NCBI GenBank assembly: GCA_036170735.1
Contig: JAVHPT010000078.1
Coordinates: forward strand, 1 to 58,396
DNA from: Patescibacteria group bacterium
Lineage (GTDB): Bacteria; Patescibacteriota; Gracilibacteria; BD1-5; UBA2023
DNA: 58,396 bases
Direction: 5' to 3'
This document shows positions 1 to 58,396 of this stretch, piece after piece. Each line of letters starts with the position of its first letter. The first letter of the stretch is position 1. A program made the position numbers and the translations under genes. Under the pieces are notes generated by a model. That model did not search any database, had not been told where the DNA came from, and saw only the letters and a list, made by a program, of their open reading frames with translations.

Positions 1-361
1 CCAAAAGTTTTTCATATTTCTCCATCGGTGTCAGGTATTTAATTCCTCCGTGTGGTCTCTTGCAGTTGTAAAAGGTAAGCCAGTCCATAAATCTCATATT
101 GAAATCCTTGTGCGAGGTAAAAGTATGCTTGTAGAAGAAGTTATCGTTTATGAGTCTCCAAAATCTTTCTCTCTTTCCATTGGTTTGTGGTCTTCGTACT
201 CTGGTGTATTTGTGGATGATATTCAGTTTTTGTAGCATTACCTCAAAACTATGGAGATGCCGTGATTCCTTGAGATGTGTCGTAAATTCAAGTCCATTGT
301 CTGAGAGAAGTTTCTTGATAGTAATGCCTCTGTTTAAAAACCATTTGTAGGTTCGTCTCAT
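1..361 (-). pseudogene. 5'-truncated DDE transposase/integrase fragment (rve core, IS481/IS3-like); 3' end runs off the window
   Basis: Minus-strand translation from ATG at 361 gives MRRTYKWFLNRGITIKKLLSDNGLEFTTH...RVRRPQTNGKRERFWRLINDNF...YNCKRPHGGIKYLTPMEKYEKLL. This is the C-terminal half of an rve catalytic core (D in SDNG, E in NGKRERF). An in-frame TAA at 383-385 precedes the ATG, so the HTH and first catalytic D are missing. Confidence 0.7.
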
Positions 362-379
362 AAATATAGAATGACTTCT

Positions 380-456
380 ATTTTACTCCAAATCCATTAT
401 TTTGGTGAAATGGTATCTAAAGTGTTGCGTTTTTAGAATGTAGGATACTTATATTA
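380..456 (+). repeat. Copy A of an ~80-bp inverted repeat pair (partner at 6453-6533)
   Basis: attttactccaaatcca..tttggtgaaatggtatctaaagtgttgcgt..tagaatgtaggata matches the reverse complement of 6453-6533. The core atggtatctaaagtgttgcgt is identical over 21/21 nt. The copy abuts the truncated transposase and lies just upstream of uvrC. Confidence 0.8.
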
Positions 457-505
457 TATAAGACGACCACTTGCTCTTTCATGCTTTTCTTATACAATTC
501 TCTTT

Positions 506-2476
506 GTGAAGAAGTGAATTACAGAACATCTTGAAAATATCCTCCAGAACCTCCCAAGAATTCCTTGAGTCTATCAGATGAAGGATAAGGATGGGAAGGT
601 TATCTATGTTGGGAAAGCGAAAGATCTAAAGAGTCGAGTAAAATCATACTTTCTCCGAACAGAGAATCTTTCAGTCGCCAAATATCAGATGGTAGGTAAG
701 ATTGCTGATATTGAGATTATAACGTGCCAGACTGAGGTAGAGGCACTTATGCTTGAGACTAATATTATCAAACATCTCTCACCGAAGTACAATATCCTCA
801 TGAAGGATGATAAGAATCTTGCCTATATCAAGATTACCGATTCCCCTATTCCTGAAGTTATCAAGACACGACAGAAGATCCCTGATAAGGGAGAATATTT
901 TGGTCCATATACTTCGGCTGTGGAGATTTCACTTCGTGAATTGAAGAGGCTCTTTCGTGTAAGAAATTGTCGGGTGAAGTTTGCCTCCAGAGAAAGGAAA
1001 GAAGATAAGAAATCTCCCAATAATCCAATAGCTCAACAACCAAACATTCAGATTATTGATAAAGCAGGAAGGACCATCCCTTGTATGGACTACTATATCT
1101 GAATTTGTCCATGACCATGTATCCTTGCTGAAGAAAAAATTATTCTCCACTCACAAAATATTGCTATGCTTCGAAATTTCCTCTTATGAGACACGAAAGA
1201 GATTTTTGAACATCTTGAGATAGACATGAAACAAAAGGCAAAAGAAATGAAGTTTGAAGAAGCTGCTCAGATAAAGGAAAAACTGCATGCTCTTCATATT
1301 CTCCATGAAAGACAAAATGTCCGTGATATAGTGGATGGTGATATTGATATATTTGTATTGTATGATAAGTATGAAAAGACATATATCTGATTTACACAGG
1401 TTCGATATGGTCAGATTATAGGGGTTTTCCGTTACGAAGTAAAAGTGGGAATAGATACGTATGATGATATACTCTGACAATTTCTCGTGAACCAATATTC
1501 TACAGAAGATATACCAAAAACACTTCTCTGTTCAAGAGAAGTTGAAGATGAAGCTCTTTTACTATTTCTTTCCGAAAAAGGTATTTCGCTCGAAGTTCCG
1601 AAGATTGGTCCGAAAAAGAATCTTGTTGATTTTACACTTCAGCAAGTTCGAGAGTATGCCTATAAGAAGGAGCTCTCAACTCTCGAAAATAAGACCTTGA
1701 ATCGTGAGCATATGATACATGTTCTTACTCGTCTTGGTTTTGATGTTCCAAAGAAGTGAGAAATCGTCTTTGAATGTTATGATATATCCCATACAGATTG
1801 ACATTTTACTTATGCTTCTCGGGTTGTGATTGTAAATGGAAAACCAGACCTGTCTCATTATAAGAAATATAAAGTCAAAACCCTTAAAGATGGGAAGATA
1901 GATGATTTTGCTTCTCACAAAGAGGTTATGAAGAGGCGTACTATCGAGGGAATGGAGCTCAATAATCTTCCAAACCTCATTATTATTGATGGGGGGAAAG
2001 GACAACTATCAAGTGCGATGGCAGGAATCAGAGAGGGAATGTTGGAATGGCAAATGAACGAGGCTTCCACCATTCCGGGGCAAATCCGGAATCCAGAGAA
2101 TAAAAAGTGAATTTCTGAAGAGGATCTTTACAAGATCGCCATCTGCTCTATTGCCAAACGAGAAGAAGAAATATTTTTGCCTAATCAAAAAGATCCGATT
2201 ATTCATGGAAAATGAACTCCTGAACTTATGGTTCTTCAGAGGGCTCGTGATGAAGCTCATAGGTTCTCAATAAATGCAAATAAAGCTGCCCGTATGAAAA
2301 GTATGAGAAAGAATATCCTCGAAGAACTTCCATGAATATGACCTGTGACAAGAAAGAAACTTCTCAACATCGCTGGTAGTATTGACATGGTAAAAAATAT
2401 TTCTCTTGAAGAAATAAAGAAAATCGTTACAAAGAGTCAGCTTCAGATTTTAATAGACCATTGAATTTACCAATAA
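506..2476 (+). CDS. uvrC: Excinuclease ABC subunit C
   Basis: One frame joins track ORFs 578-1102, 1487-1759 and 1826-2110 through TGA codons. Motifs: GIY-YIG N-terminus LPRIP-G-VYQMKDKDGKVIYVGKAKDLKSRV, CMDYYI-G-ICP-G-PC, ECYDISHTD-G, IIDGGKGQL, RDEAHRF, and C-terminal HhH LP-G-I-G-PVTRKKLL. Start is GTG at 506 (ATG at 578 is the alternative); stop is TAA 2474-2476. Confidence 0.95.
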
Positions 2477-3459
2477 TGTATATCCTTGCCTTTGAGACAT
2501 CCTGTGATGACACTTCTGTTGCAATTATGAAGGATAGTCAATGTATAGCTCTCTCAACACGGACACAGCTTGAACATGATATAACAGGTGGTGTTGTGCC
2601 AGAGGTAGCGGCTCGTAGCCATGCAAACGCTATATTTCCTTGTATTGATGATGTCCTTGTTGAAGCTCAGGTTTCACTTTGAGAGATTGACATGGTTGCT
2701 TGTACAGAGAAACCAGGACTCTTGCCGTCACTTCTTACTGGTATGACAGTTGCAAAGACTTTTGCACTTTCGCTTCATAAGCCACTTATCTGGATTGATC
2801 ATATCGAAGCTCATATGTTTGCGAATCTTCTGGATCGCGATTTATCTGAATTCACATTTCCTTCCGTTGTTCTGACAGTTTCTGGAGGTCATACTGAGGT
2901 ATATCTCTGGAAGTCTCTCTTTGAATTTGAACTTCTTGGACAAACTCGTGATGATGCGGCAGGTGAGGCTTATGACAAGGTTGCAAAGATGCTCTGACTC
3001 GGATTTCCATGAGGTGCCAAGATAGCGGAACTTGCCGAAACATTTCGAAAATCAGCTTCACAAAAAGGGATTGAACAATACTGAAAACTCTTCCCACGAT
3101 CTTTTCTTGAGGAAAATTTACTCGATTTTTCTTTTTCTGGTCTCAAATCTGCTGTAAAGCGATTTATCGACAGTGAGGTATGAAAGCAAAACCCAAAAGA
3201 GGTTATTGCATACGCCTTTGAGGAGGCCGTGATAGATGTTTTGGTAAGGAAACTTTTTCATGCAGCTGACACATATGGAGTTTCTCAAGTTTGTCTTTCT
3301 GGATGAGTGAGTGCGAATACCCATTTACGAGAAAGAGTTTCCCATAAATCAAAGGAAAGAGGTTTTACATTTTATGCTCCGATGAAAAATATATATTCTC
3401 AGGATAATGCTGCAATGGTAGGTATTCGAGCTTATTATGGAATATCAAATAGTAGATAG
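2476..3459 (+). CDS. tsaD: tRNA N6-adenosine threonylcarbamoyltransferase
   Basis: Motifs: [56 protein letters not shown]. The ATG overlaps the uvrC stop (TAATG); stop is TAG 3457-3459. Confidence 0.93.
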
Positions 3460-3546: not shown

Positions 3547-4518
3547 ATGGTTACGAAAAAGGCTGCAACAGTACGGACTCCAGAAGTTGGAGACGAGTCG
3601 AACTTCTCTTTTACCCATGTAATCCTTGTTATCCTCGTTCTTTTGAATGCTGCTGGACTCTATCTCCTCACGGGAAACTCTTTCTCACTCCCTGGAAGTA
3701 TCTCGATTGATCCAGTAGGCATCAAGAAAGCTATCCTTGAAGTTGAATATGATAAGGCTGGGGGAAAAGAAAATTATGATCTTCTTGCAAAGGCTCAACA
3801 GTTGAGTATGAATGATCCTCAGAATCCTTCGAATCTTGAAGCAATGAAGAAGTATATCGCTTCGTTCGGAACAGGGGGAACAAAGATCAATGCACCAACG
3901 ACTACTACGCCAACATCACCTACTGATAGTGGAGCTGGGACAGTTCTTGATGCAACGAAGATTTCTAAGGTTCTTTCTGATGCGGTAGTTGAAGGAAATA
4001 AGAATGCAGATATCCTCGTTGTTGAGTACTCTGACATGGAGTGTCCATTCTGTATCAAGCAATACCAAGATACTCAACTCTGGAAAAAGCTTCAGGCACA
4101 ATATGGTGATAAGGTAAAATTTGCCTTCAAGAATAATCGTTGAGTAAATCATCCAGGAACAGAGGTGAAGGCTCTCGGTGCTCTCTGTGCACAGAAACTT
4201 GGTGGCGATAAGGCGTACATTTCTTTCTATAACACTGTTATGAAGAATAGTACTCAAGAAGGTGGAGTTTACGCTGTAGCTCGTCTTCCTGATGCAGCAA
4301 AAGCTGCTTGACTTGATTCGAAGAAGTGGCAAGCTTGTATAGATAATAAAGATACTCTTGCACAATTTGCATCACAAACAGCAGAAGCAGAGGGATTTAA
4401 TCTCAAAGGAACACCAGGAACACTTATCCTTAATGTAAAAACTGGAAAGTATTCAACTGTTGAGGGAGCATATCCATATGAGACATTTACACAAAAATTC
4501 GATGAACTTATGAAGTAA
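3547..4518 (+). CDS. Membrane-anchored DsbA-like thioredoxin-fold oxidoreductase
   Basis: The protein has an N-terminal TM segment and a T/P-rich linker, then VVEYSDMECPFCIKQ (CPFC active site). Read-through of 2 TGA codons reaches ...GTPGTLILNVKTGK...ELMK; stop is TAA 4516-4518. Confidence 0.7.
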
Positions 4519-4535
4519 AAAGACTCAAACTTTAA

Positions 4536-4569
4536 GAAAAATCCTCCGAGAACATCGGAGGATTTTTTT
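4536..4569. terminator. Bidirectional rho-independent terminator between convergent genes
   Basis: aaaaa-atcctccga-gaaca-tcggaggat-ttttttt: a 9-bp stem with an A-run on one side and a T-run on the other. It sits between the dsbA-like stop and the methyltransferase stop. Confidence 0.8.
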
Positions 4570-5941
4570 ACTTTCTTTGCCAATCTTTCGGAAAGATATT
4601 TGAGATGATTCCATTCTTCCTTTGCTCAAGACTTATAGGAACTCCATTAAATTCAATAAGAACATACTCATCTTCTCAGTGACTTTCTATCGTATTACCA
4701 CGAAGATATAGATCGAGTCCTTGTTCATCATGGATTGTATGTCTTATGATATTACTCGTATCAAGAAACCTTCCTGACAAAGCATTTGGGACGAATCTTC
4801 CATTTTGGATATTACCAATATATTCTCCCCATCGCATAGGAAAAATTGATTCCCGGATACTTTCTCCGACTTTTACATTGCTTACGGCGAGGATTTTTCC
4901 TTCATGTTCGAGGAGGGTTATACCTTCTTGTGCTTTCCAATCTCAGAGTCTTCATCGGAAAATCCGAAGAGATGTATTTGATCTTTCCACGAAAGTTTTA
5001 TTGTTCCATCATCTCTTATTTTCACTATCTTCTTCTTTGAGAGAATCAGTTTTTTTGATTTTGGTGACAAAAAATCATCCAGTCTTGTCGATATGTGGCC
5101 AAAATTTTTTCTGGAACGTAATCTCAAACGTTCATGGATATTTTTCCTTCATTGCCTCAATAACTCATTCATTCTCAAGGAGATTCAGTGAACAGGTTGA
5201 ATATATCATCTCGCCTCAGATTTTCAGCGCATGAAGAGAGGCATCAAGGAGTCTTTCTTGAAGTCGACTAATCTGTTTTATATTTTTAATATGCCAATGT
5301 TTTACAGCGTCCGTACCCTTGTAGAGCGTTCATTCTCCACTACATGGAGCATCGAGAAGTATACGATCAAATGTTTCTGGAAATTTCTTCCAATATTGGC
5401 CAGGATATAAGGTAATCCCAACATTTGGTGCACCAATGCGCTCTAGATTATGAAGAAGTTGGGGAATTCTCTCTCGAGTAGGCTCATTTGCGATGATGAA
5501 TGAATTTGGAAAATACTCAGTAAGTTGTGTTGTCTTTCCTCATGGGCTTGCAGCAAGATCAAGAATGAGGAAATTATCTGAAACAATCGTTCTATTTGCT
5601 AAGATATCTACTGGATGAGCCGCGGCGAGTTCCTGGATATAGAAGTTCCCAATCAGGTGATCAAGAGAAAATCCAAGACGTCGCTCAAATGGGGCAAAGT
5701 CTTCCCTTCGGTCAATCGAGAAGACATTGAAGATATTGGTTGGATTCAAGATCCATCCATCATCATTAAGCCGTTCTTTCACTTCATCTACCTTATCGGG
5801 TTTGATACGAATGGTTCGAGGAATTGATTGTTCAATAGTTCTAAGGAATTCTTCCAGTTCTTCGGGTTTTTCCTGAAAGAATGTTTCTCGGAAATATGTT
5901 ACAAAGCGTTCATTAATCATATCTGAATGTAATTTTACCAA
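4568..5941 (-). CDS. RsmB/RsmF-family rRNA cytosine-C5 methyltransferase (NOL1/NOP2/Sun)
   Basis: I translated the full frame. Motifs: LDLAASP-G-GKTTQL (SAM site), ILLDAPCSGE-G-T, I-G-GEMIYSTCSL. The TTG start at 5941 overlaps the smpB stop (ATG alternative 7 codons in); stop is TAA 4568-4570. Confidence 0.8.
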
Positions 5942-6384
5942 ATTTTTCGAGTTTCTCTCTCAATATCCCGTTCTTTTAGGAGATTTTTCTTCTCCCATTT
6001 CTTTCGTCATTTTGCGAGAGCAACACGAACCTTGAAGAGATTTCACTTGCTATAGATCTCTATCGGAATGATCGTTGCTCCCATGTCTTTGACTTTCTGT
6101 GCGAGTTTGAGGATTTCCCTTTGTGATAAGAGGAGAAGGCGTTCGCGTTTTGGTTCGATTTTTGTCGCGGAATTATTTTTATACTCTGCTATATGACACC
6201 CGACGAGGATAGGTCGACCAGAATGAATGGTGATGTATGCTCATTTGAGATTGACTTGTCAGGCGCGAACACTTTTTACCTCTGGGCCGTAGAGTACAAT
6301 ACCAGCTTCAAATTCCTCTATAATCTCATAATCAAAGAGGGCTTTCCGATTCTCGGAAATAGTAGTATTTCACTTGCTTCACAT
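5935..6384 (-). CDS. smpB: SsrA-binding protein
   Basis: [51 protein letters not shown]...[13 protein letters not shown]...ALAK-G-RKKWEKK; 149 aa; stop is TAA 5935-5937. Confidence 0.93.
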
Positions 6385-6733: not shown

Positions 6734-7453
6734 CTATAGTATATATCAGAGTTTCTTTAGAGCGTTTCATTGGTTGATAAAATAAGGGCTTGTAGCAATT
6801 GTAATGTAATCTGCTCATGGAAGTAAATTTTGTATGAGTTGTATCTTCTTTTCTTCAGGAATGAAATCAAGTTCAGGAGCAAAGACATCAAGATCAAGAT
6901 TCAAGACACTACTTCATCTGGGTTTATAATTCATATATTCGTCAATCTGTGATTCATTTTCTATGCGAATCATCTTTCCAACCAATCCACTTTGGATTGC
7001 TGGTTGTATATAGTTTCCAACATTACAGGAGAGATTGGTAAAATCCCATGCATATTCCTCATCAGAAATCGCCTTATCAAGATTGAGAATATTCTTATTC
7101 TCCCAGAGATCGGAGTGTTCATCGATGTGGATGAGCTCGAATCATGGATGCAGAATTCATCTTCTCATCGCTTCAATCCAAAAATAGAGAGCGTGATTGT
7201 GATTATCGAAAATGATGATTGGTCTTGAATTTATCTGAACAAAATGCTTCAATCCAACACAAGATCTCAGCTTTCCATCTTCTATTTCTTCAAAGACAAC
7301 CTCATCGCCAATTTGTACGTCAGAAATATCTCCTCTGATAAGACTGGGAATAAAGAGAGTAGGCGGATATCAGTATTTTTCTTCTCGTTCTTTCCATGCA
7401 AAAGAGTTATTTCAAGAGCATCCTTGTAGTGTTCGTGGAATACTATAATCCAT
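6734..7453 (-). CDS. UPF0489-like protein (tentative)
   Basis: 239-aa read-through ORF, checked codon by codon. It contains IIIFDNHNHALYFW, LIHIDEHSDLW and NLDLDVF, which resemble UPF0489 family motifs. The ATG at 7453 overlaps the upstream kinase gene by 11 nt. Confidence 0.5.
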
Positions 7454-7985
7454 GAATATATGATATTACAATATCAAAAACTTCTTCGGGTGTTATTTTA
7501 CTCGTATCAACTACAAGATCGTAGAGGGACATATCATAGATGTGGAGACTGTAATACTTCATATATCGATCATTCTCACTTTGGCGTCGGATCTTGATAT
7601 TTTCTATGGCGTGCTCAATAGTCTCATGACTTTCGACACCTGTACGACTTTGATCCTCGAATATCCTCTTTGCTGCCTCTTCAGGATCAACCGTAAGAAA
7701 GATCTTGATTCCATGAGGAATAAAATGAAAAGCAAGCCGACCGTCAATGATAAAATTATTTTCGTTTTTTCAAAGCGCAACCTGCCTATCATCAAGGATT
7801 TTATCGATAATACCTCCATCACTTTCAGCTTCTCTTCAGAGATCAATTAGAGAGATTCATCGTTCCATAGCAAACTCTCGCATAAAATCTCCAGTTGAAT
7901 ATCTTTTATATTCGAGTGCATCTGCAAGGCGTTTTCAGAGTGTACTCTTTCCGGCACCGTGATGTCAACCAAGGGTAATAATCAT
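7443..7985 (-). CDS. Cytidylate kinase-like P-loop NMP kinase
   Basis: MIITLG-G-HHGAGKSTL-G-KRLADAL (Walker A); 180 aa; ...NFIIDGRLAFHFIPHGIKIFLTVDPEEAAKRI...; the frame was checked for TAA/TAG. Confidence 0.6.
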
Positions 7986-8020
7986 AGGGATAGTATAAAG
8001 AATTTCAGAAATCTTCAATA

Positions 8021-9934
8021 TTACTTATGTATATTCGAAGAATAAATCTCTTCTTCGGTGGGTGGCGTATAAAAGTCTTCAGCATAGTATACATGATCGA
8101 GGATTCGACTTTTTGGAGATGTGGTCTTTTTCGAGTATTGTATTTCCTTCTGGAAACACCTTAAGTCAAGACAGATGGGTATCTCTTGAACTCATTCTGG
8201 TTCTTTAGATTCGGTTTTATAAATCATGTGATGTTCTATCATATATTCTGCAATTCGGTGCCAGAGGGGTCATGCACCACTGACTCATGAGACATCTTCC
8301 ATGGGTGTAGCATCGTTGTTTCCTACCCAAACTCAGATGATAGCATTGGGATAGTAGGATATTGTCCAGTTATCTCGAAAGTCTGTACTTGTTCCTGTTT
8401 TTACTGGAAGGGGGATAGAAGTATTGAGAATACTCGAGATTCCAAAGGTTTTTGCTCTGTTTTGCGGATCTTTCAAAATCTCTCCTATAAGAAATACATC
8501 TTTATCTGTTGTTCAGAGAAGATGAGAAAAGGAATCAACAACATTCTCAAGTGTGAGCTCAACCGTTCCAATAGAGATACCATAGCCATAATATCAAGCA
8601 TCGTGATCGAGATCAAGACCATTTTGACGAAAAAAATCATAGATTTTCCCAATGCCGATTTTTTCAGATATTCGTACTGTTGCTGCATTGAGTGAATTCC
8701 CGAGAGCCTCTCTTAGACGAATTGGTCCATATGATTTTGGAACATAATTCTGAGGGACAAAAACCTTTTCATCATACCCGGTAGGGTATTGTTGCAGATC
8801 ATCCATAACTAGACTCTCAGGATCTGCTCATTCATGGAGAGCAAGGAGGTACACAAAAGGTTTCAATATAGATCACACGGAACGTCGTCGAGTTATCATG
8901 TCTACCGCATTAGTTGTTGTATCTCCTCCAGGGCGGCCAGAGACGTAAGCAAGAACCTTCTTCTCAGTTGGATTATATATATAGACAGCTCCATTGGTAA
9001 CATTTTTTTCTCAGAGGGGTTTCAATACCCCATCAAGTGTAGAGGATATGAATTGCATGAGCCTTCCATCAATAGAGAGATAGAGTGTTTGAGAGTTTGA
9101 TTCACAGAGATTGCTTGGGATCTTTATGGTAAATTTCTCAAGTTCTTGCCTGTTCCCAGCACAGTATTCTTGGATTCATTTTTCAATCCTTCCGGTCAAA
9201 AGAGGAAAATCATCATTATACGTAGTTCGGGAATGTTCTAGGATGGAGCTCTTTCATGTGGATATACCAAGACGTGTAGCAATGAGATTGCGATAGTTTA
9301 GCACGTCATCTATATTTCATTCATTTACATTTGGTGAGTGAATGCGGGTAACGATATCAAGGATCTCATCATTGGTAAGATCTCCATAGCTTCTTCCAGG
9401 AAAATATGATGCAAGAGCGCTTCAGAGCCCGTAGATCTTATTTCAGAAGTAGAGGGAATCGAGGTATTTATGGAGAACCTCATCTTTACTGAAAGAAGTT
9501 TCGATGAAAAGAGCTCCAATGGATTCCCTCATCTTTTGCACGATGGTCCTGTCGGATCATGCAAAATAAGCATTTTTGATATATTGTTCTGTCAATGTCG
9601 AACCTCCACGAACAACACTTCCAGCCTGGAGATCTTCCCAGACGCTTCCGAGTTTTGCTTGTATATTTACGCCACTATGTTTATAGAATCGAGCATCCTC
9701 AATAGTGAGGATATCTTGTATGAGAGGGATATCAAGACTTCCAGAATAGGGGATCATATATCATCATACTTTCCCTTTTTCTGTTATCTTTATTCCATTC
9801 CTATCAAAAAGAGTGAGGCTCCCATATTCCACAAATGGAGTATGAGTAACGGAAATAATAGTATCTCCTATGAAAAGTATAGAAGAAGCACACACGGCAA
9901 TACAGAATATGAAGAGAAACTTTCACATATCCAT
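8021..9934 (-). CDS. Class A penicillin-binding protein (transglycosylase + transpeptidase)
   Basis: The protein has an N-terminal TM segment. The GT51 motifs are EDARFYKHSGV and RGGSTLTEQYIKN. The transpeptidase motifs are RRRSV-G-SILKPFVY (SxxK), GNSLNAA (SxN) and VKTGTSTDFRDNW (KTG). 637 aa; the frame was checked. Confidence 0.9.
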
Positions 9935-10176
9935 GAGTATAGGAGAAAAGAAAAATTTGACAAAATGTTTTTCTCTATATAATGCACCCACTTCTATCGC
10001 AGACAGTAGGGAGGCCAATAGGTCATAATTCCTACCGAGATGGACAGATTCAGTTTAGAGTTCAAAGTTCAGAAATCCTCTGGAACCCCCAACTTTTAAC
10101 CGAAATTGTTCGTGCGATAAGCGCGATTTTTTTTCGCTTTTCGTCAGAAGTACCTACTTTTTAATCATTATTGTTT

Positions 10177-10908
10177 ATGGCTGTTTCTAAAGCTAAGAAA
10201 TCTGAACAAATTGCTGCTCTTGAGACACATATCAGGTGCGCAACAAGTGTTGGATTCACTTCTAATCAGAAGATAACTGCTCTTGAGGTTTCTGCTCTCA
10301 AGCGGGATCTTCGTGCACAGAATGCAATATTTCTCACTGTAAAGAAGACTCTTATTCGTATCGTATTCAAAAATATTCACAATATCGAACTCGATCTCGA
10401 AACCCTTCCTGGTCAAGTTGCTCTTGTTATCGCAAAGGGTGATGCTATCGCTCCACTCGGGGTAGCAAACAAGTATTCAAATGAATGGAAGAAAGAAGAG
10501 AAAATGGTATTTGTCGGTGGTTTTCTCGAAGGTCGTCTTATGGACAGTGTTGAGATAAAGAAGCTCTCAAGTCTCCCTTCTCGTGAAGTACTTCTTGCCA
10601 AACTCCTTGGTTCTATGATGTCTCCTCTTTCTGGTCTTGCTCGATTCTTCAATGCAGCAAAGAAAGACCTTGAAGGAAAAGGTCTTGCAAAAGTTGGAGA
10701 TCTTCCATCTGAAGCTCCAGCAAAGAAAGAAGAAACACCAAAAGCAGAGACTGTTGCAGCTCCAGAATCTTCAACCCCTGTAGTTGAAACCCTGGTAGAG
10801 GCTCCAGTTGCCGAAACTCCAGCAGAGACCACTCCAGAGGTTTCTGTAGAAGAAACTCCAGTTGCTACAAATGAAGAAGTAAAAACAGAAGAGGCTCCAG
10901 CAGCGTAA
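10177..10908 (+). CDS. rplJ: Ribosomal protein L10 with a long acidic/Pro-Thr-rich C-terminal extension
   Basis: MAVSKAKKSEQIAALETHI...ITALEVSALKRDLRAQNAIFLTVKKTL...; the tail is EAPAKKEETPKAETVAAPESSTPVVETLVEAPVAETPAETTPEVSVEETP...; there is no in-frame TGA. Confidence 0.9.
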   Translation: MAVSKAKKSEQIAALETHIRCATSVGFTSNQKITALEVSALKRDLRAQNAIFLTVKKTLIRIVFKNIHNIELDLETLPGQVALVIAKGDAIAPLGVANKYSNEWKKEEKMVFVGGFLEGRLMDSVEIKKLSSLPSREVLLAKLLGSMMSPLSGLARFFNAAKKDLEGKGLAKVGDLPSEAPAKKEETPKAETVAAPESSTPVVETLVEAPVAETPAETTPEVSVEETPVATNEEVKTEEAPAA

Positions 10909-10920
10909 TGGGTTCCTTTT

Positions 10921-11029
10921 ATCACTCCGTAGGAGTCCCTATCAAATTCATCTTAAGAGATTTTGATAGTTTCCTTCTCATAAGTGCAGGCAAAAGCGAT
11001 TCCTCCGCTTTGCTCGGAATGACAAAAAT
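10921..11029 (-). repeat. Mosaic intergenic repeat, locus E (reverse orientation)
   Basis: tcactccgtaggagtccct...cttaagagattttg...aaaagcgattcct...ggaatgacaaaaa is about 80% identical by eye to 12021-12139. The ends are the reverse complement of the tttttgtcattcc / tcctacgga modules seen at the other loci. Confidence 0.8.
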
Positions 11030-11187
11030 AAAACTGATTCTCGTTTCACATCCTATTCGCCACGGCGGATAGGTGCGAGGTGAAAATCTCGAAGGAGCAT
11101 ATTCGTCGTTTCGTTTCTTTGTTTTTCGATGAAACGAATAAACGATAGAACGAATATACATTATTTATTTTCTTATTTTTTTCTATT

Positions 11188-11582: not shown

Positions 11583-11613
11583 AAAAAATCCAATCATTTG
11601 ATTGGATTTTTTT
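11583..11613. terminator. Bidirectional terminator after rplL and the convergent DUF177 gene
   Basis: aaaaaatccaatc-attt-gattggattttttt. Confidence 0.8.
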
Positions 11614-16596: not shown

Positions 16597-16650
16597 GATT
16601 CGAAAAGAGAGATTAGGGATTAGGATTCTATTGGGGGGGGGGTGAACTAC

Positions 16651-46594: not shown

Positions 46595-47440
46595 TTATTG
46601 GAGTGTTTTGCTCGCATTGTATTGTGTCTCAGTTTGTATGAGGTTCAGTTGCTTGAGTATATCAGATCCAGAATTGGGAATAGTGATGACAGAACGTTTG
46701 ATAAGAGCTTCACGATTGGTAACGAGTGTATCGAGCATCTTCCTGTTCTCTGCCTGAAGAGTATTGTAGATTTGATGGAAGTTCTCTAGATATACGAGAT
46801 ATACACGAGCTCGGATATCAGCTTGCTTGGCTTGTGTATAGCTCGTGATAGTAGCATCAACGCTCGTATAATCAAGTCCGTCATAGGAGGCCTGCATACC
46901 TGCCTTTGCAGCCGTAGTATCGGTCGCGCTTTTTGCGATGATGGCGTTGAGGTCTGTTATCTGCTCATCAAGGAGGGCAAGTCGATCATTGGTACTGTTC
47001 CCATAATCTTTGAGAAGTGCGATATATTCGTCGAGAGTGATAGTCCGATCAGTGGCACCGTCAAGCATCTTGATAATATCTGTTTTGAGAATATTATTAT
47101 ACGTACTGATGGCAAGCATGTTCCCACCGATGAGACGTTTCTGTCCGTCCCCTGGATTGGAGAGTACTTCCGCTATAGATATGATATCATTTGAGAGATT
47201 GATTGGAGTATTGGCGCTTTGTTTAACCTTTTGTCCTATATTGAGACTCATTGCCGTTGCAATATTTCCGAGATATGTCACGTTCGATTGTGCAAAACGA
47301 GCATCATTGGAACTTGCATTGGTAGACAATCCAAGCATCGGTGCTATATACCCCCATGAGAGATGGAGAGCGAGCGTGAAGAAAAGAGTCAGGATGAGTG
47401 TATTTTTTATGAAGTCCTTGATTTCGTGTCTGAAAAACAT
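46595..47440 (-). CDS. Hypothetical membrane-anchored coiled-coil protein (281 aa)
   Basis: Intact track ORF with the N-terminal TM segment NTLILTLFFTLALHLSWGYIA followed by heptad-like T/A/D/L-rich sequence. There is no in-frame TGA. Confidence 0.65.
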   Translation of the reverse strand: MFFRHEIKDFIKNTLILTLFFTLALHLSWGYIAPMLGLSTNASSNDARFAQSNVTYLGNIATAMSLNIGQKVKQSANTPINLSNDIISIAEVLSNPGDGQKRLIGGNMLAISTYNNILKTDIIKMLDGATDRTITLDEYIALLKDYGNSTNDRLALLDEQITDLNAIIAKSATDTTAAKAGMQASYDGLDYTSVDATITSYTQAKQADIRARVYLVYLENFHQIYNTLQAENRKMLDTLVTNREALIKRSVITIPNSGSDILKQLNLIQTETQYNASKTLQ

Positions 47441-47563: not shown

Positions 47564-49843
47564 ATGCGCTTTTCTCGAATTTTTCTCATCATTTGCCTCA
47601 TTCTCCTCGTTTCAACTATTGGATTTAAACCAAAGTATGATCTTTCCGTTGAGCGGACGGGTGTTTCATCGTGAATAGGAGTATACGAGGGTGGCATGTA
47701 TATGGTAACCTATACTCAGAAAGTATGAGGTCCAAAAAATACCTGGTATCTTGGAGTTGATAAAAGTGTCTGACTTTCTGATATCTGAGATCTGTGTGTT
47801 GATTGGAAGATAGGAAATGAAGAAAAATCTAGCACCGAATGTCTTGATATTGATGCCGAAAATAGTGCAAATAATGAGGATAGTGCGGACAGTGTATTCA
47901 CTTTTCCAATTCTTTCACAAAATATTTCAAGTGGCATCCACTTTACTGTCCGTTCAACCAAGCCTTTTCAAGATAGAGATATAACACTATACTCTATGAA
48001 TACTCAAGCTCAATGATATGATCTTGCGTTCGAGCTTCCGAAACTCACGGCTGATACGACCGTTGTTTCTCGTGCCGATTGGTGAGCTGATGAGACGATG
48101 CGGTATGCTGACAGTTCCTATTGGAAAGAGAAGTATCCTGATTATCTCAAGTATGTTCAGAGGCCAAAGACGCAATCAGAGCTTGATGCAATATATCTTG
48201 ATAGGGCTCGTGTAGATTTCCTGAAGAAATATTTTCCAGATACAACTAAAACGATGAGTCTTTCTCGGTATAACAATGGACATCTCCTCGTATGGCCAAC
48301 CCAGAAGGTAAAAAAAGTAAATAGAATCGTTTTGCACCATACTGCGGAAGATATGAATTCAGCAGCGAGCGATGAAGAGGTACTTCGTGCTATGTATGCG
48401 TATCATACACTCTCACGTCAGTGGGGAGATATAGGATACAACTATATTGTCTGACAGCGAGGAAAGATATATGAGTGACGTGCAGGAGGAGACTACGTCG
48501 TTGCTTCTCATACACAGTACAATAATATGGGAACTGTTGGGATTGCAACCATGGGAAATTTCCAGAACATGACACTTAATCGAGATCAACAAGCCGGACT
48601 CGAAGAGGCAATTACGATGGTTGCAAAAAAGTATGGTATAACTCTCTCTGCTCAGGTTCCGTGAGTGCATGTATGTAATACGGCGACATGTTCACCCCTT
48701 CAGCTCTTTACGGGCTCATCACTCCTTGGGCATAGAGATATTGGCGTAACGGCATGTCCAGGTGACAACCTCTACAAGTTGATCCTTCCTCTTATCGAGA
48801 AACTTAATGTACCATATATTTCAGTTTTGAATACAACTTTTGGGACAATCGATCCACCACCAAAAGAAGAGAAGATGAATATGGCTCCCATGACAACCAT
48901 CATTTCTTCTCCACCATCATGACAAGATATTCACTTGCTGGTAGCTTCCTTCAAAAGAGTTCAATATGTTGGGAAGAAACTAAAGGTAAAACTTTCTTAT
49001 CCAGATGAGAAGAATATCGCTCTCTCACCCCTCGATCCTAGTGTTCGAAATATTTCATTATGATCAAAGAAGCTAAAGTCTAGAACATGAGAAAAGATAG
49101 AAGTATGAATAGTATGAAATAACCAACTTGAAGTAAAAATAGGAGCGAATAAATATATATGAAAATATCTAAAGGTCGCAAGTACTGTTGTTCAGATTGA
49201 TTCTTGGACGAGGATTCCTGCATGGGACTCAGGGAAGAATCATAATGATAATCTCTTCAGAGATACAGTAACAGTGAAAAATGATAACGGAAAACTCCTT
49301 ATTATCAATGAGCTTCCTCTTGAGTGGTATCTCAAGTGACTTGGTGAAGTCTCCAATGGAGATATGCCAGAAAAGATAAAAACAATTATTGTTGCAGCAC
49401 GTTCATATGCAAAATACTATATGAGTCCACAAAATCGAAAGTACAAAACTTCTCTTTATGATGCCTCGGATGATCCAGATTCGTTCCAGAAGTATCTCTG
49501 ATATAGTTATGAAAGCCGATCTCTCAATGTTGCTCATCAAGTAGATGCGACAAAGTGACTTGTGATAACATACAATAAGAAGCCAATCAAGCCTTGGTAT
49601 TTCTCCTCTTCTAGCTGAAAGACATTATCCTATCTTGAATATTGTAGAAGTTCGTGAAAATCAGATTGTTCAGATATTCCATATCTACAATCAGTAGATG
49701 ATCCTGGTGCATATGGGCATACACAATCAGGTCATGGAGTTGGGATTTCTTGAGTCTGAGCAACATATTGGGCCGGACAATGATGGGATTATACGAAGAT
49801 TATTGCTTATTATCTTCCAGGGACGAAGGTGGAGAGGAAATAA
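47564..49843 (+). CDS. Fusion of N-acetylmuramoyl-L-alanine amidase (amidase_2/PGRP) and a SpoIID/LytB-like domain
   Basis: The signal is MRFSRIFLIICLILLVSTIG. The amidase_2 region is RIVLHHTAED...YAYHTLSRQWGDIGYNYIV-G-QRGKIYE-G-RAGG...GHRDIGVTACPG. The SpoIID region is IIVAARSYAKYY...DDPDSFQKYL-G-Y...KPWYFSSSS-G-KT...GHGVGIS-G-V-G-A. 759 aa; the frame was checked. Confidence 0.85.
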
Positions 49844-50130: not shown

Positions 50131-52245
<2,115 letters not shown>

Positions 52246-52395: not shown

Positions 52396-53724
52396 ATGCA
52401 ATATACTGTTACACGTAAGAATTCATATACACTCGTTGTAAATATCAAGGAGTCTGGTGTTGAGCTTGAGAAGGCTCGAAAGCATATTATTGAAGAGATT
52501 CGAACGAAAGGAAAGGTGAAGGGTTTCAAGCAAGGGTCTCAGATTCCTGATGCTATTATTGTCCGTGAATTTGGAGAAGCTATGATCGAACAACAAGCAC
52601 TTGATTTCCTTCTTGAAAAGATGTATCCAAAAGTTCTCAAGAAGGAAAATATTACTCCTGTTGCTCCAGGAAATATTACCGAGGTAAAGAGTACTAATCC
52701 TGTTGAGCTTACGCTTGAGATTGAAGTTTTTCCTGAGATTGAGATCGATGAAAAAAAGCTTGGTAAGATTCGTGTAAAACGGACAGCTGTTACGGCTGAA
52801 GAGAAAGAGGTTGATACTGAACTTGATGCTATTAAGTCAAAATTTACCCATTTTCACAATGCCGGAGAACATACGGAAGATGGAGCTGATACTTCAAATG
52901 AAAAGATTGATAAAGGTGATCGTGTAACGATTACAGCTCAAGGATATGATAAAAAGGGTGGTGAAGCTATCAAGGAAACTCATGTTCCAAGTTATCCTCT
53001 TGTTATCGGTTCCAATTCATTTATCCCGGGATTTGAAGAAGAGCTTATTGGAGCAAAGGCTGGAGATGAGGTTGCTTTTGATGTTACGTTTCCAAAGGAT
53101 TATCATGCCGATGAATTTAAGTCACGTAAAGTTCACTTTGTTGCAAATGTTGAAAAAATCGAAAAGCCACATACTCCCGAATTTACTCCCGAATTTATCG
53201 AAAAGCTTCGTGGTGTAAAAACAGATCTTGTTGGCCTTCGAGAAATTCTGCAGAATGAGATCCTTGCACGCAAAGAACAAGAGGTCCGCAATAAAGATGA
53301 GAATATTCTTATGCAGCAAATACTCGAAGTGAGTAGTTTCGAAATTGGGCCAGCTCTTCTTCATGCTGAAACAGAGCAGATTTTCCGTGAGCAGAGCGCT
53401 AATCTTGAAGAGCAAGGTCTCAATATGAAGATGTATCTTGAACATGCAAAAAAAAGTGAAGAAGGATATAAGGAAGAGATAGTAAAACCTGAAGCAGAAC
53501 GTCGTATCAAAGCAGAACTTCTTCTTCGAAAGATTCGCGAAATTCGTGGAATCGAAGCAACAGAAGATGAAGTAAAAGCAGAAGTTGAGAGGGTGATTGC
53601 ACAATATGGCAGTTCTGACGTAGTTGAGCGTCTTAGGGCCAAACTCATTTCAGGGGATGCATACTATGAGGAAATCAAGTCTCGTGTTACTTATCGCAAG
53701 GTAGTTGACGGATTTTGGGAATAG
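52396..53724 (+). CDS. tig: Trigger factor
   Basis: Intact 442-aa ORF. It has an N-terminal ribosome-binding region (GFKQGSQIP), a PPIase-like middle region (FIPGFEEELIGAKAGDE) and a helical C-domain. There is no in-frame TGA. Confidence 0.93.
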   Translation: MQYTVTRKNSYTLVVNIKESGVELEKARKHIIEEIRTKGKVKGFKQGSQIPDAIIVREFGEAMIEQQALDFLLEKMYPKVLKKENITPVAPGNITEVKSTNPVELTLEIEVFPEIEIDEKKLGKIRVKRTAVTAEEKEVDTELDAIKSKFTHFHNAGEHTEDGADTSNEKIDKGDRVTITAQGYDKKGGEAIKETHVPSYPLVIGSNSFIPGFEEELIGAKAGDEVAFDVTFPKDYHADEFKSRKVHFVANVEKIEKPHTPEFTPEFIEKLRGVKTDLVGLREILQNEILARKEQEVRNKDENILMQQILEVSSFEIGPALLHAETEQIFREQSANLEEQGLNMKMYLEHAKKSEEGYKEEIVKPEAERRIKAELLLRKIREIRGIEATEDEVKAEVERVIAQYGSSDVVERLRAKLISGDAYYEEIKSRVTYRKVVDGFWE

Positions 53725-53929: not shown

Positions 53930-54610
53930 ATGCACTCGTACGAAATTGAAATCAAGGTTCTTCTCGGAGATAAGCCATCTCGTGATAATTTCATGAATGC
54001 GGTGAATATCAACTTTCCTGCCACGAAGCATTCGTATTCTGAATCACAGAAGAACCACTACTTTGAAGGAGGAACTCTCGAAAAACTCGCAGAGGTTTTT
54101 ACTTCCAATGTTTCCAGCGAAGAAATCAAGAGACTTCATGATATTCGAGAGAATACGAAGAACTTCTCTGTTCGTACACGAGGAACAAAAACAGAGACAA
54201 TCCTTGTAGTAAAAGCAACAGTCAATGATGAGTCAAGCGCAAATGGAACGGCTCGTATTGAATGGGAAGTTAATCTCGCTCCGATGATGCTCGAAGAGAT
54301 AGATGAATTGGTTTTAGAAGCAGGATTCAATTACCAGGCAAAGTGGTCACGGGATCGAGAAGAGTATCAACTGGATCATGATACAGCAGTTTGTATAGAT
54401 AAAAATGCCGGATATGGATATCTCGCAGAGTTCGAGCGAGTTATTACAGACGCTTCTCAGATTGGATCAACTCGTTCCGAACTCCTCAGTATCATCGAGT
54501 CACTTGGTTACACTGAACTCGATCAGGCCCGTTTGGCCCGGATGTTTGACTTCTATAACAAGAATTGGAAAGACTACTATGGGACAGAGAAGGTCTTTAC
54601 TATAGTGTAA
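53930..54610 (+). CDS. CYTH-domain protein (class IV adenylate cyclase / triphosphatase-like)
   Basis: MHSYEIEIKVLL (ExExK), ...SVRTRG..., ILVVKA, RIEWEV, GYGYLAEFE. 226 aa. I prefer the ATG at 53930 to the track start at 53873. Confidence 0.75.
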   Translation: MHSYEIEIKVLLGDKPSRDNFMNAVNINFPATKHSYSESQKNHYFEGGTLEKLAEVFTSNVSSEEIKRLHDIRENTKNFSVRTRGTKTETILVVKATVNDESSANGTARIEWEVNLAPMMLEEIDELVLEAGFNYQAKWSRDREEYQLDHDTAVCIDKNAGYGYLAEFERVITDASQIGSTRSELLSIIESLGYTELDQARLARMFDFYNKNWKDYYGTEKVFTIV

Positions 54611-55372
54611 ATGTCAGAAGAACTCAAAATACTCATCAATTTCATTATCTGACTTTTCTCAGCTTATTTTGGTAGCTTTGCTTCTGGAGGAGTTTCGGTT
54701 CTCGGTATCGGATTTCTTACGATGCTTGGGATTCCTCCGCAGATGGCAACGATTACCTTCAAGCTCGGGAAGATTGGAGATGTTCTCGGTGGAGTATTTC
54801 TCTTTTATAAACACGGACATATCAATACACGATATTTTCTCTGGGGAGGGATCGCTTCCGTTATCGGGAGCTTTGGCTGAACCTATCTGATTTTCTCTAT
54901 TCCTGACCAAGTCATCTACTTTGTTTCCGCGATTACGATGATTGTACTCGCAATCGTTTCTTGGTATAAAAAATCAGGAATACAGCCACAAGAAAAGATA
55001 TCAAAAAAACGAGAATACCTCTACTATCTTTGCCTATTTTGTCTCACGTTTGTCGGGAATCTTTTTATTGCTGGTTCAGGAGTCTGGTACTATTTTGTCA
55101 ATACATTCGTGATCAGACTATCTTCGCTTGAGGCAAAGTGACAGGCAACCGCTATGAGTGTCTTTTGGTTCATCGGGACGTTTCTTGCCATACTTGTTCA
55201 GTGACAATATGTATTCTCTTGGGCAGTAGCACTTGGGTTGGGTATGCTGATTGGAGGATATTTCGGTACAAAACATATCATAAAAATTGGAAATCAAGCA
55301 CTTCGGAATATACTACTGGGCACAATAGTTGTATTTGCTCTTTATTTCCTTTATCTTGCATTCCATGTCTAA
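54611..55372 (+). CDS. TauE/SafE (DUF81) family anion exporter
   Basis: 253 aa, polytopic: FGSFASGGVSVLGIGFL...GSF-G-GTYL...LGMLIGGYFGTKH. The stop overlaps the thyA start. Confidence 0.75.
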
Positions 55373-56330
55373 ACATCCAGAATATCAATACCTCGATCTT
55401 GCGGAGCGTATTCTCACCGAATGAGTCAAAAATGTTGACCGTGCCAATGGAGATGTATCGTACAGTCTCTTCGGGGCACAGTGTCGATACGATCTCTCAA
55501 AGAGTTTTCCACTCCTCACGACGAAAAAAGTTTACTGGAAAGGAGTCGTAACTGAACTCATCTGGTTCCTTACTGGACAATCCAATATCCGCTTCTTGGT
55601 CGAAAATAATGTCCATATCTGGGATGATTATCCATACTATGTGTACAACGGAAAAGTAAAAAAGGGTGAACTCCCAGCTATGACCAAGGAAGAATTTATA
55701 GCGAAAATCCTCGAAGATGCAGATTTTGCAGAAAAGTATGGCAATCTCAAAAATATCTATGGTGAGGCATGGAGGCATTGGCCAACCAAGGATCCAGAGC
55801 GAACGGTTGATCAGATAAAATTCGTCCTTCGTGAGCTCACTGAGGATCCAGACGCACGCAACGCGATCGTGACAGCATGGAATCCGGAGTTTATGTATAC
55901 CATGGCAAAACCTGAAGAAGCAAATAAGTTCCCCATCTGTCATGCGATGTTCCAGTTCTCTATCAAGGATGGAAAACTCTCTTGTCAACTCTATCAGCGC
56001 TCGGCAGACCTCTTTCTCGGGGTGCCGTTCAATATTGCTTCGTATGCACTCCTCACTCATATCCTCGCCAAGCTCCTCGGAGTTGGAGTAGGGGATTTTG
56101 TCCACACATTCGGTGATGTGCATATCTACGAGACCCATGTTGAGCAGATGCGCGAGCAACTTGCCCGTGATCCAAAAGAATTCCCAACTCTCACTATCAG
56201 TGATTCTCTCGTGGATATTGACCATGTTACTCATGATATGATCATCCTCGAGAACTACGATCCACATCCGCCTATCAAGGCAGCGATGGCGGTAGTTGGA
56301 GGAATGGTGGGAAGAGATGAGGAGAATTAA
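55365..56330 (+). CDS. thyA: Thymidylate synthase (long form with insertion)
   Basis: MSKHPEYQYLDLAERILTE-G-VKNVDRANGDVSYSLFG...FPLLTTKKVYWKGVVTELIWFL...AWNP...PICHAMFQF...QRSADLFLGVPFNIASYALLTHI...GDVHIY; 321 aa. Confidence 0.96.
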
Positions 56331-56339
56331 TATACAGAA

Positions 56340-57209
56340 ATGATCCTCCTCTACGCCTTTTTCGTTCTCACATTTCTCAATGCTTTCAAGGATATCGCTA
56401 TCAAGAAGTGACTTCAGAACCTGAGTCCAGGTGCAATGACAGGGATTACGTCCCTCACCTTGATTTTTGTTAGTATTCCATTTATCCTTCGTGAAGGTAT
56501 TCCTGATCATATTGACTCTTCATTTGTTTGGGTAGTTCTGGGTGGTGGGGTTTTTTACTATTTCGGAAAGTTTTTTAACTTCACCGCTCTTTCCCTCGGG
56601 GATATCTCCTATATTGCTCCGATGAAGGGGCTCGTGAGTATTGCGGTTATCTTTTCGAGTCTCTTGCTTCTTGGAGAGTGAGTATCGCTTGGTGGATGAT
56701 TCGGGATTTTTCTCATCTTCGCGGGAACCTATTTCCTCGCTCTCGAAAAAACTCACACGCATGTACTGGCTCCGATTCAGGCACTTTGGACCAATGCTGG
56801 CTCCAAGATGTATCTCGTTTCTGTCCTTATGTATGGATTTACTGTGACTTTTGATCGTATGGGAGTACATGCGAGCTCCATCTGGATTTGGACGTTTCTC
56901 ATGAATTTTATCATGTTTATTATGAGCTCTCGTGATGTATACAGTGAGAGGAAAACTATCCGACAAGATATGAGAAAATATTGGAAAGTTCTCTTTTTAA
57001 TTCTCTCTCTGCACGTATTGGTCTACGTATCACAGATGTGGATTGTATCACAGGTGATTGCTCCATACACGAGCGGGTTTAAGGCAGCCTCGGCGCTCTT
57101 TGCGGTGATACTTGGTGGTTGGTTTTTCATGGAAAAAGATTTATTCAAGCGTTTTGTTGCCGCAGCTATTATCTTCGTATGAGTGCTCTGTATAGGATTC
57201 TTGGGATAA
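56340..57209 (+). CDS. EamA/DMT-family transporter
   Basis: 289 aa and about 10 TM segments. Joins track ORFs 56436-56681 and 56808-57182 through TGA; stop is TAA 57207-57209. Confidence 0.75.
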
Positions 57210-57248
57210 AAAATTGCTTCTTTAAATGAGATTCATATACTTTCATGT

Positions 57249-57722
57249 ATGCAAATCATCGCCATTCTTGCTATGGATGAATCTCTTCTTATCGGGAAGA
57301 GTAATGGACTCCCATGGCACATACCCGAAGACATGAAGCGTTTCCGTGAGTTCACCACGGGTGGTATTGTCGTGATGGGGAGGAATACGTATTTTTCTCT
57401 TCCAGAGAAGGTTCGTCCGCTCCCGAACCGTCGTAATATCGTGATCACTCGGACTCCAATTCTAGGCATTGAATGCTACTCAAGTATTGAGGATTTTATA
57501 GAATCTATGAAGAATGAGAAAGTATGAAAAGTATACCTCATCGGTTGAGCATCTCTCTATAATCAATTCTACGAGAAGTGACTGGTTGATGAAGTTGAGC
57601 TTACACTTCTTTCCTGAGCGCATGAATGAGATATATTCGTGAACGAGTGGAGAGATGATTTCGTAGAGATTAAGAGTGAAGACTTTGAGCAAGGGAAGTT
57701 TATTACCTTAGAGAGAAAATAA
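57249..57722 (+). CDS. folA: Dihydrofolate reductase
   Basis: MQIIAILAMDESLLIGKSNGLPWHIPEDMKRFREFTTGGIVVMGRNTY...RRNIVITR...-G-KVYLIG-G-ASLY...E-G-DIF; 157 aa. Confidence 0.92.
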
Positions 57723-58345
57723 TGTATATCGTTCTCGAGGGCATCGTTGGTTCAGGAAAATCCACTCAAGTAAAGAAATTGGTGAATTTTCTTCGTTCTG
57801 AGTATCCCGAGAGAGGGGTCATCAGTGTGAGAGAGCCTGGCTGAACTCCTATTGCTGAGGATATCCGTCACCTAGCCCAAAGGAAAGAGTGGGAAAATGA
57901 ACAGATGCATCCACTCACAAATACCTATCTCTATGCGGCTGCACGAGCGCAGACACTTCAGATGATTGTGAAACCGGTTCTTGATAGAGGAGATATTGTT
58001 GTCTCGGATCGCTCGTTTCTCTCCTCCTGTGCTATCCAGTGAGAAGCTCAGTGACTCGGTATCAATATGATTCTCTGGGTAAACAAGAGTGCTGTAGGGA
58101 AACTGCTCCCAGATATCATCCTGTATCTCGATATCGACATCGACACTGCCTTGTCTCGCACCTTTGATTCGTCTTGAGATAAGTTCGAGAAAGAATGAAG
58201 AGATTTTTATGAGGCAATTGTACGTGGGTATGAAAAGTGCGAAAAGTGGAACAAGATAAAAGATCGATTCTTTCGTATTGATGCAAATGGAAGTGAGGAG
58301 GAGGTGTTTGAGAGAATACTTCATCAGTTAAAAGTCAATAATTAA
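57722..58345 (+). CDS. tmk: Thymidylate kinase
   Basis: MYIVLEGIVGSGKSTQVKKL (P-loop), REPG-G-TPIAEDIR, VVSDRSFLSS, LYLDIDIDTAL. The ATG overlaps the folA stop (TAATG). 207 aa. Confidence 0.93.
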
Positions 58346-58359
58346 AAGTGAAAATACAT

Positions 58360-58396
58360 ATGGAACAACTTATCTTATCACTTCATGAACATGCTG
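58360..58396 (+). CDS. 5' end of an unidentified CDS running off the window
   Basis: ATG at 58360 gives MEQLILSLHEHA..., 15 nt after tmk. Only 12 codons are visible. Confidence 0.3.
   Translation, partial: MEQLILSLHEHA

Follow-up and report, generated by a model that had tools for sequence, protein, structure and literature searches.

What does TGA (UGA in the mRNA) encode in a stretch of bacterial DNA whose genes, when read with the standard code, are broken at this triplet again and again? The question was raised by positions 1 to 58,396 of contig JAVHPT010000078.1 (assembly GCA_036170735.1, a Patescibacteria group bacterium), and this whole stretch of 58,396 bp, with a GC content of 39.6%, is referred to here as the window. 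An initial annotation, made from the letters of the window, proposed that TGA was a sense codon for glycine (Gly), as in NCBI translation table 25. This reading of UGA was described in the Gracilibacteria and SR1 in 2013 and validated by proteomics in 2014, and it has been carried as NCBI table 25 since. The analysis presented here bore the proposal out: the window is almost certainly chromosomal DNA of an uncultured member of the Gracilibacteria (Candidatus Altimarinota) that uses table 25, and UGA very probably serves in it as an ordinary Gly codon. Termination is limited to UAA and UAG, and UGG stays a tryptophan (Trp) codon.

We started with gene models in which only TAA and TAG were allowed as stops. 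A codon-usage-scored, non-overlapping selection of frames gave 51 genes, and smpB was added by hand. The 52 models gave a coding density of 89.3%, and their lengths matched public gene calls almost exactly (704, 759, 1,336, and 601 amino acids, for example), with gene starts that are approximate. The public calls used for this comparison were those of the 107,346-bp contig JAVHPN010000036.1 in assembly GCA_036170615.1, in which the window corresponds to about positions 4,602 to 62,997, reversed. In addition, near-identical contigs of 9 to 13 kb were present in the Logan assemblies of the SRR254905xx series.

When TAA, TAG, and TGA were all treated as stops, the longest stop-to-stop frame in the window was 447 codons, and with TAA and TAG alone it reached up to 1,353. 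Of the 17,363 codons in the models, 309 were in-frame TGA codons (1.78%). TAA and TAG never occurred in frame, although about 457 of these two triplets would be expected from their out-of-frame rate in the same genes (log10 probability of observing none, about -201). TGA occurred in frame at about the level expected by chance, whereas TAA and TAG were wholly absent. Thirty-nine of the 52 genes ended at TAA, 13 at TAG, and none at TGA, which agreed with the earlier statement that TAA and TAG terminate every gene model. The companion statement that essentially every conserved gene is split at TGA was accurate for 43 of the 52 genes; the other nine, which include the genes for L10, L7/L12, SecE, trigger factor, a CYTH protein, an Lnb_N protein, and a 281-amino-acid hypothetical protein, have no TGA. 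The in-frame TGA codons were spread uniformly along the length of the genes (Kolmogorov-Smirnov p = 0.88). Counted as Gly, TGA makes up about one quarter of all Gly codons (309/1,256) and raises the Gly content from 5.45%, with GGN codons only, to 7.23%.

Because circularity had to be avoided, TGA was translated as X, and the residue at each X was then read from standard-code homologues with solved structures. Gly faced TGA at 36 of 59 such sites and Trp at none (binomial P = 8e-26 with a Gly background of 7.5%). In the case of trmD (39600 to 40250, minus strand), all five TGA codons faced Gly in solved TrmD proteins. The same was true of both TGA codons in ruvC (34767 to 35246, plus), including the one in GIDPxT, which was Gly in all three solved RuvC proteins shown, and of the single TGA in thyA (55365 to 56330, plus), which lies in LTEx. 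Gly also outnumbered other residues in UvrC (506 to 2476, plus; 656 amino acids, 14 TGA) by five sites to one, in TsaD (2476 to 3459, plus; 327 amino acids, 6 TGA) by three to one, and in the NAD-dependent DNA ligase LigA (50131 to 52245, minus; 9 TGA) by six to three, the count of six being the same for two solved LigA proteins. The sites were evenly divided in SmpB (5935 to 6384, minus; 6 TGA), where the TGA codons of VRAxQ and AKxRKK faced Gly and two further sites faced Asp or Asn, and in the RsmB/F-type rRNA methyltransferase RsmF, where five sites faced Gly, five faced other residues, and the TGA codons of AASPxGKT and CSGEx corresponded to Gly in homologues. For rsmF (4568 to 5920, minus; 450 amino acids) the coordinates follow the public start, which avoids an overlap with smpB and drops one TGA relative to our longer model, which extends to 6010; the gene has 10 or 11 TGA codons. 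Other residues outnumbered Gly in the ABC transporter ATPase (21794 to 22486, minus; 7 TGA), by four to three with the Walker A TGA facing Gly, and in the class A penicillin-binding protein PBP1 (8021 to 9991, minus; transglycosylase plus transpeptidase, 18 TGA), by 7 to 4 among 11 aligned sites; in the latter, the TGA of RSVxSILKPF faced the Gly of PGSSFKPF.

The second type of evidence came from alignment columns in TsaD and UvrC. For TsaD, GTDB species representatives were scanned, which yielded 57 standard-code bacterial loci and 23 loci that belong to the Gracilibacteria or to other Patescibacteria. In-frame TGA was absent from the 57 standard-code genes, and there were up to 11 per gene in the relatives. 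At the window TsaD residues 174, 179, and 277, all encoded by TGA, the column was Gly in 50/57, 57/57, and 57/57 of the standard-code bacteria, respectively, and the relatives carried GGN or TGA at these positions; the remaining three TGA codons of the window gene sit in variable columns. When the window and the 23 relatives were pooled, Gly-consensus columns held 46 of 62 TGA codons, and a Codetta-like log-odds score at TGA was +81 for Gly, -247 for Trp, and negative for every residue other than Gly. The UvrC set consisted of 129 diverse representatives of 50%-identity clusters, which were 32 to 40% identical to the query P0008, a related G-coded Gracilibacteria UvrC; the window UvrC was aligned locally to the matches of this query. 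Columns at TGA had a mean Gly fraction of 49%; the corresponding means were 64% at GGN and 2.4% at all remaining codons. Five of the TGA sites (21, 228, 432, 610, and 612) fell in columns that were 93 to 100% Gly, and the log-odds at TGA were +12.3 for Gly, -47.5 for Trp, and negative for the other residues.

The third type of evidence was the exchange of codons between related genes. Across 24 related loci, of which 22 are labelled Gracilibacteria, 109 pairs of window genes and orthologous frames were aligned. The 480 codons that were paired with a window TGA included 248 GGN codons, 74 TGA codons, and no TGG codon, and three genes compared with a single relative at 75% identity showed the same pattern. 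Independent assemblies had TGA at the same positions, as did relatives, in which it alternated with GGN. Considered together, the structures, the column statistics, and the codon exchange are three independent kinds of alignment evidence, and at the level of sequence they support the assignment of UGA to Gly.

Codon pairs were also used to examine other possible departures from the standard code. One TGG codon in tsaD lies in a column that is 98% Gly, and we considered whether TGG might be read as Gly as well. This idea was rejected, as the relatives have TGG, TAT, TAC, CCN, or GCN at this position and never GGN or TGA, and as the orthologous partners of TGG codons in general were Trp (70%), Phe, and Tyr codons, with no TGA or GGN among them. 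The residue in question, W106 in LIWIDH, is near a conserved His motif; it is Gly in 98% of the 57 standard-code sequences and Trp, Tyr, Pro, Ala, or Ser in the lineage. Because the relatives never have GGN or TGA there, we view it as a lineage-specific substitution of Gly by an aromatic residue or Pro. A change of CGA and CGG to Trp has been predicted for Absconditabacteria and some Gracilibacteria (PMC8629427), and it was likewise rejected for the window. CGA and CGG account for 1.0% and 0.29% of codons, respectively, and both behave as Arg: they were paired with Arg or Lys codons in orthologues (Arg in 65% and 58% of pairs, the CGG sample being small), and the columns that contained CGA in UvrC were 54% Arg and 0.1% Trp.

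Protein domains also continued across TGA. A single Pfam match bridged several TGA codons in TsaD (profile positions 7 to 262 of 264) and in SmpB (1 to 139 of 143), and the Pfam domains of UvrC, RsmB/F, and the transglycosylase likewise extended over TGA. When the same frames were cut according to table 11, the TsaD fragments matched profile positions 6 to 47, 50 to 148, and 228 to 263, and the TrmD fragments matched positions 1 to 35, 94 to 132, and 135 to 186. In both cases, the fragments were collinear on one profile with TGA at the joins, and the claim that the pieces rejoin in frame held. Conserved residues also continued after TGA codons located three to four codons upstream of the stop; for example, DHxI in UvrC was DHGI in four relatives. 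A related arrangement was seen in a membrane protein (35711 to 36484, plus; 6 TGA), whose His/Gly/Asp-rich tail, ...HEVAGHAGAGHDDGHGGGDAAGHDDGHGxxYH, has two adjacent TGA codons three to four codons before the stop.

Some observations weigh against UGA as an ordinary Gly codon. A residue other than Gly (Arg, Thr, Asp, Glu, Ala, Leu, and others) was found at 23 of the 59 alignable TGA codons, and about 40% of alignable TGA codons correspond to variable or non-Gly columns. Any Gly codon would show such mismatches at variable sites, and the GGN columns of UvrC, too, average only 64% Gly; even so, inference from a single site is unsafe. The motifs quoted in the initial annotation (ISxPSGSGKT, DEPxS, AASPxGKT, CSGEx, LPxIxP, IDPxT, YGGxSG, LTEx, PxDSGAP, RSVxSILKPF, and AKxRKK) were all present in the sequence, and its assertion that TGA sits exactly at an invariant Gly was correct for most of them; it went too far for the Walker B motif DEPxS of the ABC ATPase, where TGA faced Thr or Phe, and for the variable and non-Gly sites just described. 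The second point is that no tRNA gene of any kind, and thus no tRNA with a UCA anticodon, was found in the window or the 12 kb of sequence that flanks it. The 24 related loci contained only four tRNA genes (three Met and one Gln), none with a UCA anticodon. A search with Rfam at gathering thresholds revealed no RNA family and no selenocysteine insertion sequence (SECIS) in the window or flanks, and no prfB gene was found within the approximately 70 kb of contig that the analysis covered.

Based on the literature on this lineage, a dedicated tRNA-Gly(UCA) with the customary Gly identity elements (G1:C72, C2:G71, G3:C70, and U73) would decode UGA, and the factor that normally ends translation at this codon, release factor 2, would have been lost.

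TGA is clearly a sense codon in the window, and a sense TGA could also specify Trp, as it does in table 4. A further point in favor of this alternative is that, for TsaD, TrmD, and Tmk, a public catalogue of 15 billion proteins has entries identical to the Trp translation and none for the Gly translation. We consider it exceedingly improbable nonetheless, as Trp faced none of the 59 structure-aligned TGA codons, its log-odds were strongly negative in both TsaD and UvrC, TGA was never paired with TGG, and TGG alternated with Phe and Tyr codons instead. Moreover, table 4 would increase the Trp content of the window proteins from 0.95% to an abnormal 2.73%. The suggestion that TGA is still a stop, and that the split genes are pseudogenes or products of sequencing errors or mis-assembly, draws on the fact that under table 11 these frames fall into 361 pieces whose median length is 28 codons. 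This explanation is next to impossible: single Pfam profiles join the pieces in frame, TAA and TAG are fully absent in frame while TGA is at chance level, the TGA positions recur in independent assemblies as well as in relatives, in which they alternate with GGN, and the affected genes have essential housekeeping roles (alaS, ligA, trmD, and tsaD, for example). Selenocysteine insertion or programmed read-through at special sites has an essentially nil probability. UGA does encode selenocysteine in many bacteria, but 309 sites in 43 genes far exceed any selenoproteome, the residues aligned with TGA were Gly and never Cys, and neither SECIS nor any other Rfam family was detected in the window.

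A more subtle alternative is that UGA is dual or ambiguous, with mostly Gly insertion plus context-dependent termination or misreading (as Trp via a near-cognate tRNA, for example), and that the resulting cost explains why UGA is avoided in some genes. TGA accounted for only 4% of the Gly codons (5/117) in seven genes that are likely to be highly expressed, compared to 27% (304/1,139) elsewhere (Fisher P = 1.5e-9), which is an approximately six-fold depletion. These genes are rplJ (L10; 10177 to 10908, plus) and rplL (L7/L12; 11188 to 11565, plus), which together span 10177 to 11565; greA (14787 to 15275, minus); nusG (16045 to 16596, minus) and secE (16651 to 17031, minus), which together span 16045 to 17031; the gene for an FKBP-type peptidyl-prolyl isomerase (40257 to 41195, minus); and tig, which encodes trigger factor (52396 to 53724, plus). 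There are three TGA codons in nusG, one each in greA and the FKBP gene, and none in the other four. The base located 5' of TGA in the 52 genes was T in 17% of cases, compared to 29% for other codons that start with T (P = 5e-7) and 46% for GGA, and A was enriched (40%). Furthermore, rare non-Gly peptides at UGA were detected by proteomics in a BD1-5 relative (PMC4032931), and a wobble ambiguity at U34 that concerns UGA and UGG has been described for the lineage (PMC8629427). Against this stand the absence of any window gene that ends at TGA, the conserved residues that follow TGA three to four codons before the true stop, and the uniform distribution of TGA along genes. The depletion in highly expressed genes is explained equally well by codon-usage selection for abundant tRNAs, and the highly expressed set was picked by function after the per-gene counts were known. 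Thus, we view an ambiguous UGA as very unlikely. It is similarly improbable that UGA decoding departs from a dedicated tRNA-Gly(UCA) and loss of release factor 2. If it did, UGA could carry a cost or be read with some ambiguity, because decoding is slow, some termination persists, or Trp is misincorporated, and selection would purge UGA from highly expressed genes and disfavor certain neighboring bases.

The reading of UGA as an ordinary Gly codon also fits the apparent origin of the window. The nearest species representatives by TsaD (70 to 46% identity) are labelled Candidatus Gracilibacteria (Candidatus Altimarinota, taxid 363464), and the labels Candidatus Gracilibacteria or Altimarinota apply to the 20 or so TsaD loci that rank closest in the GTDB species representatives and to the top UvrC matches that bear a name. 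The lineage assigned in the initial annotation is thus supported by these sequence comparisons. UGA as Gly has been established in Gracilibacteria and Absconditabacteria (PMC8629427; preprint 10.64898/2026.05.24.727570), and proteomics of a BD1-5 bacterium identified 97 peptides unique to the UGA-Gly reading and 3 unique to the UGA-Trp reading (PMC4032931). The window shares with the known table 25 systems (Absconditabacteria SR1; Gracilibacteria BD1-5/GN02, GTDB class JAEDAM01) frequent in-frame UGA codons that align with Gly, UAA and UAG as stops, UGG as Trp, a low-to-moderate GC content, and Gracilibacteria relatives. It differs from them in no tested feature, and the additional CGA/CGG-to-Trp change of Absconditabacteria and some Gracilibacteria was not seen. 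The table 4 systems of Mycoplasmatales, Entomoplasmatales, and several insect endosymbionts also have a sense UGA, UAA and UAG stops, and a reduced genome, but the amino acid is different: Gly in the window and never Trp. Selenocysteine recoding has in common with the window an in-frame UGA that is decoded without termination; it is site specific, depends on SECIS, and aligns with Cys, whereas the reassignment in the window would be genome-wide and aligns with Gly. Both the genetic code and the lineage that uses it were therefore known before, and the observation is not new.

The remaining genes of the window are described here in order, with the number of TGA codons in each. Downstream of uvrC and tsaD is a gene for a thioredoxin/DsbA-like protein (3547 to 4518, plus; 2 TGA). 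Between smpB and the PBP1 gene are genes for a UPF0489-domain protein (6734 to 7453, minus), in which one of 8 TGA codons lies four codons ahead of the stop, with a conserved tail after it, and a cytidylate-kinase-like P-loop protein (7443 to 8018, minus; 5 TGA). The region that follows rplL contains genes for a hypothetical protein (11612 to 11980, minus; 1 TGA), a TPR protein (12145 to 12690, minus; 1 TGA), the radical SAM protein RlmN (12858 to 13946, minus; 3 TGA), and a DUF212 or divergent PAP2 protein (14352 to 14780, minus; 1 TGA), and a further hypothetical protein is encoded between greA and nusG (15317 to 16003, minus; 3 TGA). Beyond secE, an NlpC/P60-domain protein with 7 TGA in 168 codons (17219 to 17725, minus) was recognized by a Pfam match of 28.9 bits (cut-off 23) and is missing from the public calls, and the adjacent hypothetical protein (17946 to 18668, minus; 9 TGA) has a shorter public call of 150 amino acids. 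Next is alaS (18742 to 20547, minus; 7 TGA), which encodes a short form of alanyl-tRNA synthetase; no domain was detected in its 601 amino acids apart from the catalytic one (tRNA-synt_2c) and the second additional one (tRNA_SAD).

The ABC ATPase gene is adjoined by a gene for a membrane protein that has no Pfam match (20623 to 21822, minus; 11 TGA), and our guess, from its position beside the ATPase, is that this protein is a permease. Farther along the minus strand are genes for a 1,336-amino-acid protein that has no Pfam match (22471 to 26481; 34 TGA), an Lnb_N-domain protein (26498 to 27445; no TGA), a DUF2339 membrane protein (27457 to 29535 in the public model, with 16 TGA counted in a shorter model, 27457 to 29466), and an FtsJ/RlmE methyltransferase (29547 to 30149; 6 TGA). 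These are followed on the plus strand by genes for an RNase T-type exonuclease (30293 to 30895; 4 TGA), an M3 oligoendopeptidase (31331 to 33115; 3 TGA), a HAD/PMM-type hydrolase (33133 to 33888; 4 TGA), and a hypothetical protein (33937 to 34707; 3 TGA), and then, beyond ruvC and the gene for the protein with the His/Gly/Asp-rich tail, by genes for a phospholipase D-family protein (36603 to 37637 in the public model, with 2 TGA counted in a shorter model, 36657 to 37637) and a 631-amino-acid protein that has no Pfam match (37698 to 39593; 10 TGA).

After trmD and the FKBP gene, the minus strand encodes HolA, the delta subunit of DNA polymerase III (41242 to 42222; 8 TGA), and MscL (42455 to 42877; 2 TGA). 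A serine protease of the Trypsin_2 family, assigned by a family match, is encoded on the plus strand (42984 to 43577), and the 6 TGA codons counted in its shorter model (43083 to 43577) include that of PxDSGAP. The next three genes, all on the minus strand, encode a hypothetical protein (43617 to 43937; 1 TGA), a 767-amino-acid multi-pass membrane protein (44255 to 46558; 21 TGA), and the 281-amino-acid hypothetical protein (46595 to 47440; no TGA); the latter two have no Pfam match. An Amidase_2/SpoIID-domain protein (47564 to 49843, plus; 23 TGA) is encoded before ligA, and genes for a CYTH-domain protein (53930 to 54610, plus; no TGA) and a TauE/SafE permease (54611 to 55372, plus; 4 TGA) follow tig. 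The window closes with a compact thymidylate cluster (55365 to 58345) that consists of thyA and, all on the plus strand, genes for an EamA transporter (56340 to 57209; 4 TGA), the dihydrofolate reductase FolA (57249 to 57722; 5 TGA), and the thymidylate kinase Tmk (57722 to 58345; 5 TGA). Just past the end of the window, after tmk, are genes for a NUDIX hydrolase and a 5'-3' exonuclease (L001, 14431 to 16174).

The table that is applied has a practical consequence for annotation. The initial annotation anticipated that a standard-code annotation of this contig would be badly fragmented; the table 11 pieces described above fit that expectation, and the public gene calls do not, as they read through TGA and store Trp at these positions. 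The trace of this practice can be seen in related UvrC proteins, for which NCBI/nr entries have 0 to 0.2% Trp and about 6% Gly, and Logan and JGI entries have 0.9 to 3.5% Trp and 2.9 to 5.5% Gly. A fallback to table 4 restores gene length but writes Trp at about 300 Gly positions in the window, and the public catalogue contains such translations of this contig and also of many relatives in Logan, ENA, and JGI data. The errors fall on catalytic Gly motifs, including P-loops, GDSG, and S-adenosylmethionine-binding loops, and structure predictions, alignments, and homology searches would suffer from them throughout the lineage. The value of the finding is thus practical, in that it concerns annotation quality, and not conceptual; as biology, the use of UGA in this member of the Gracilibacteria is a textbook case.

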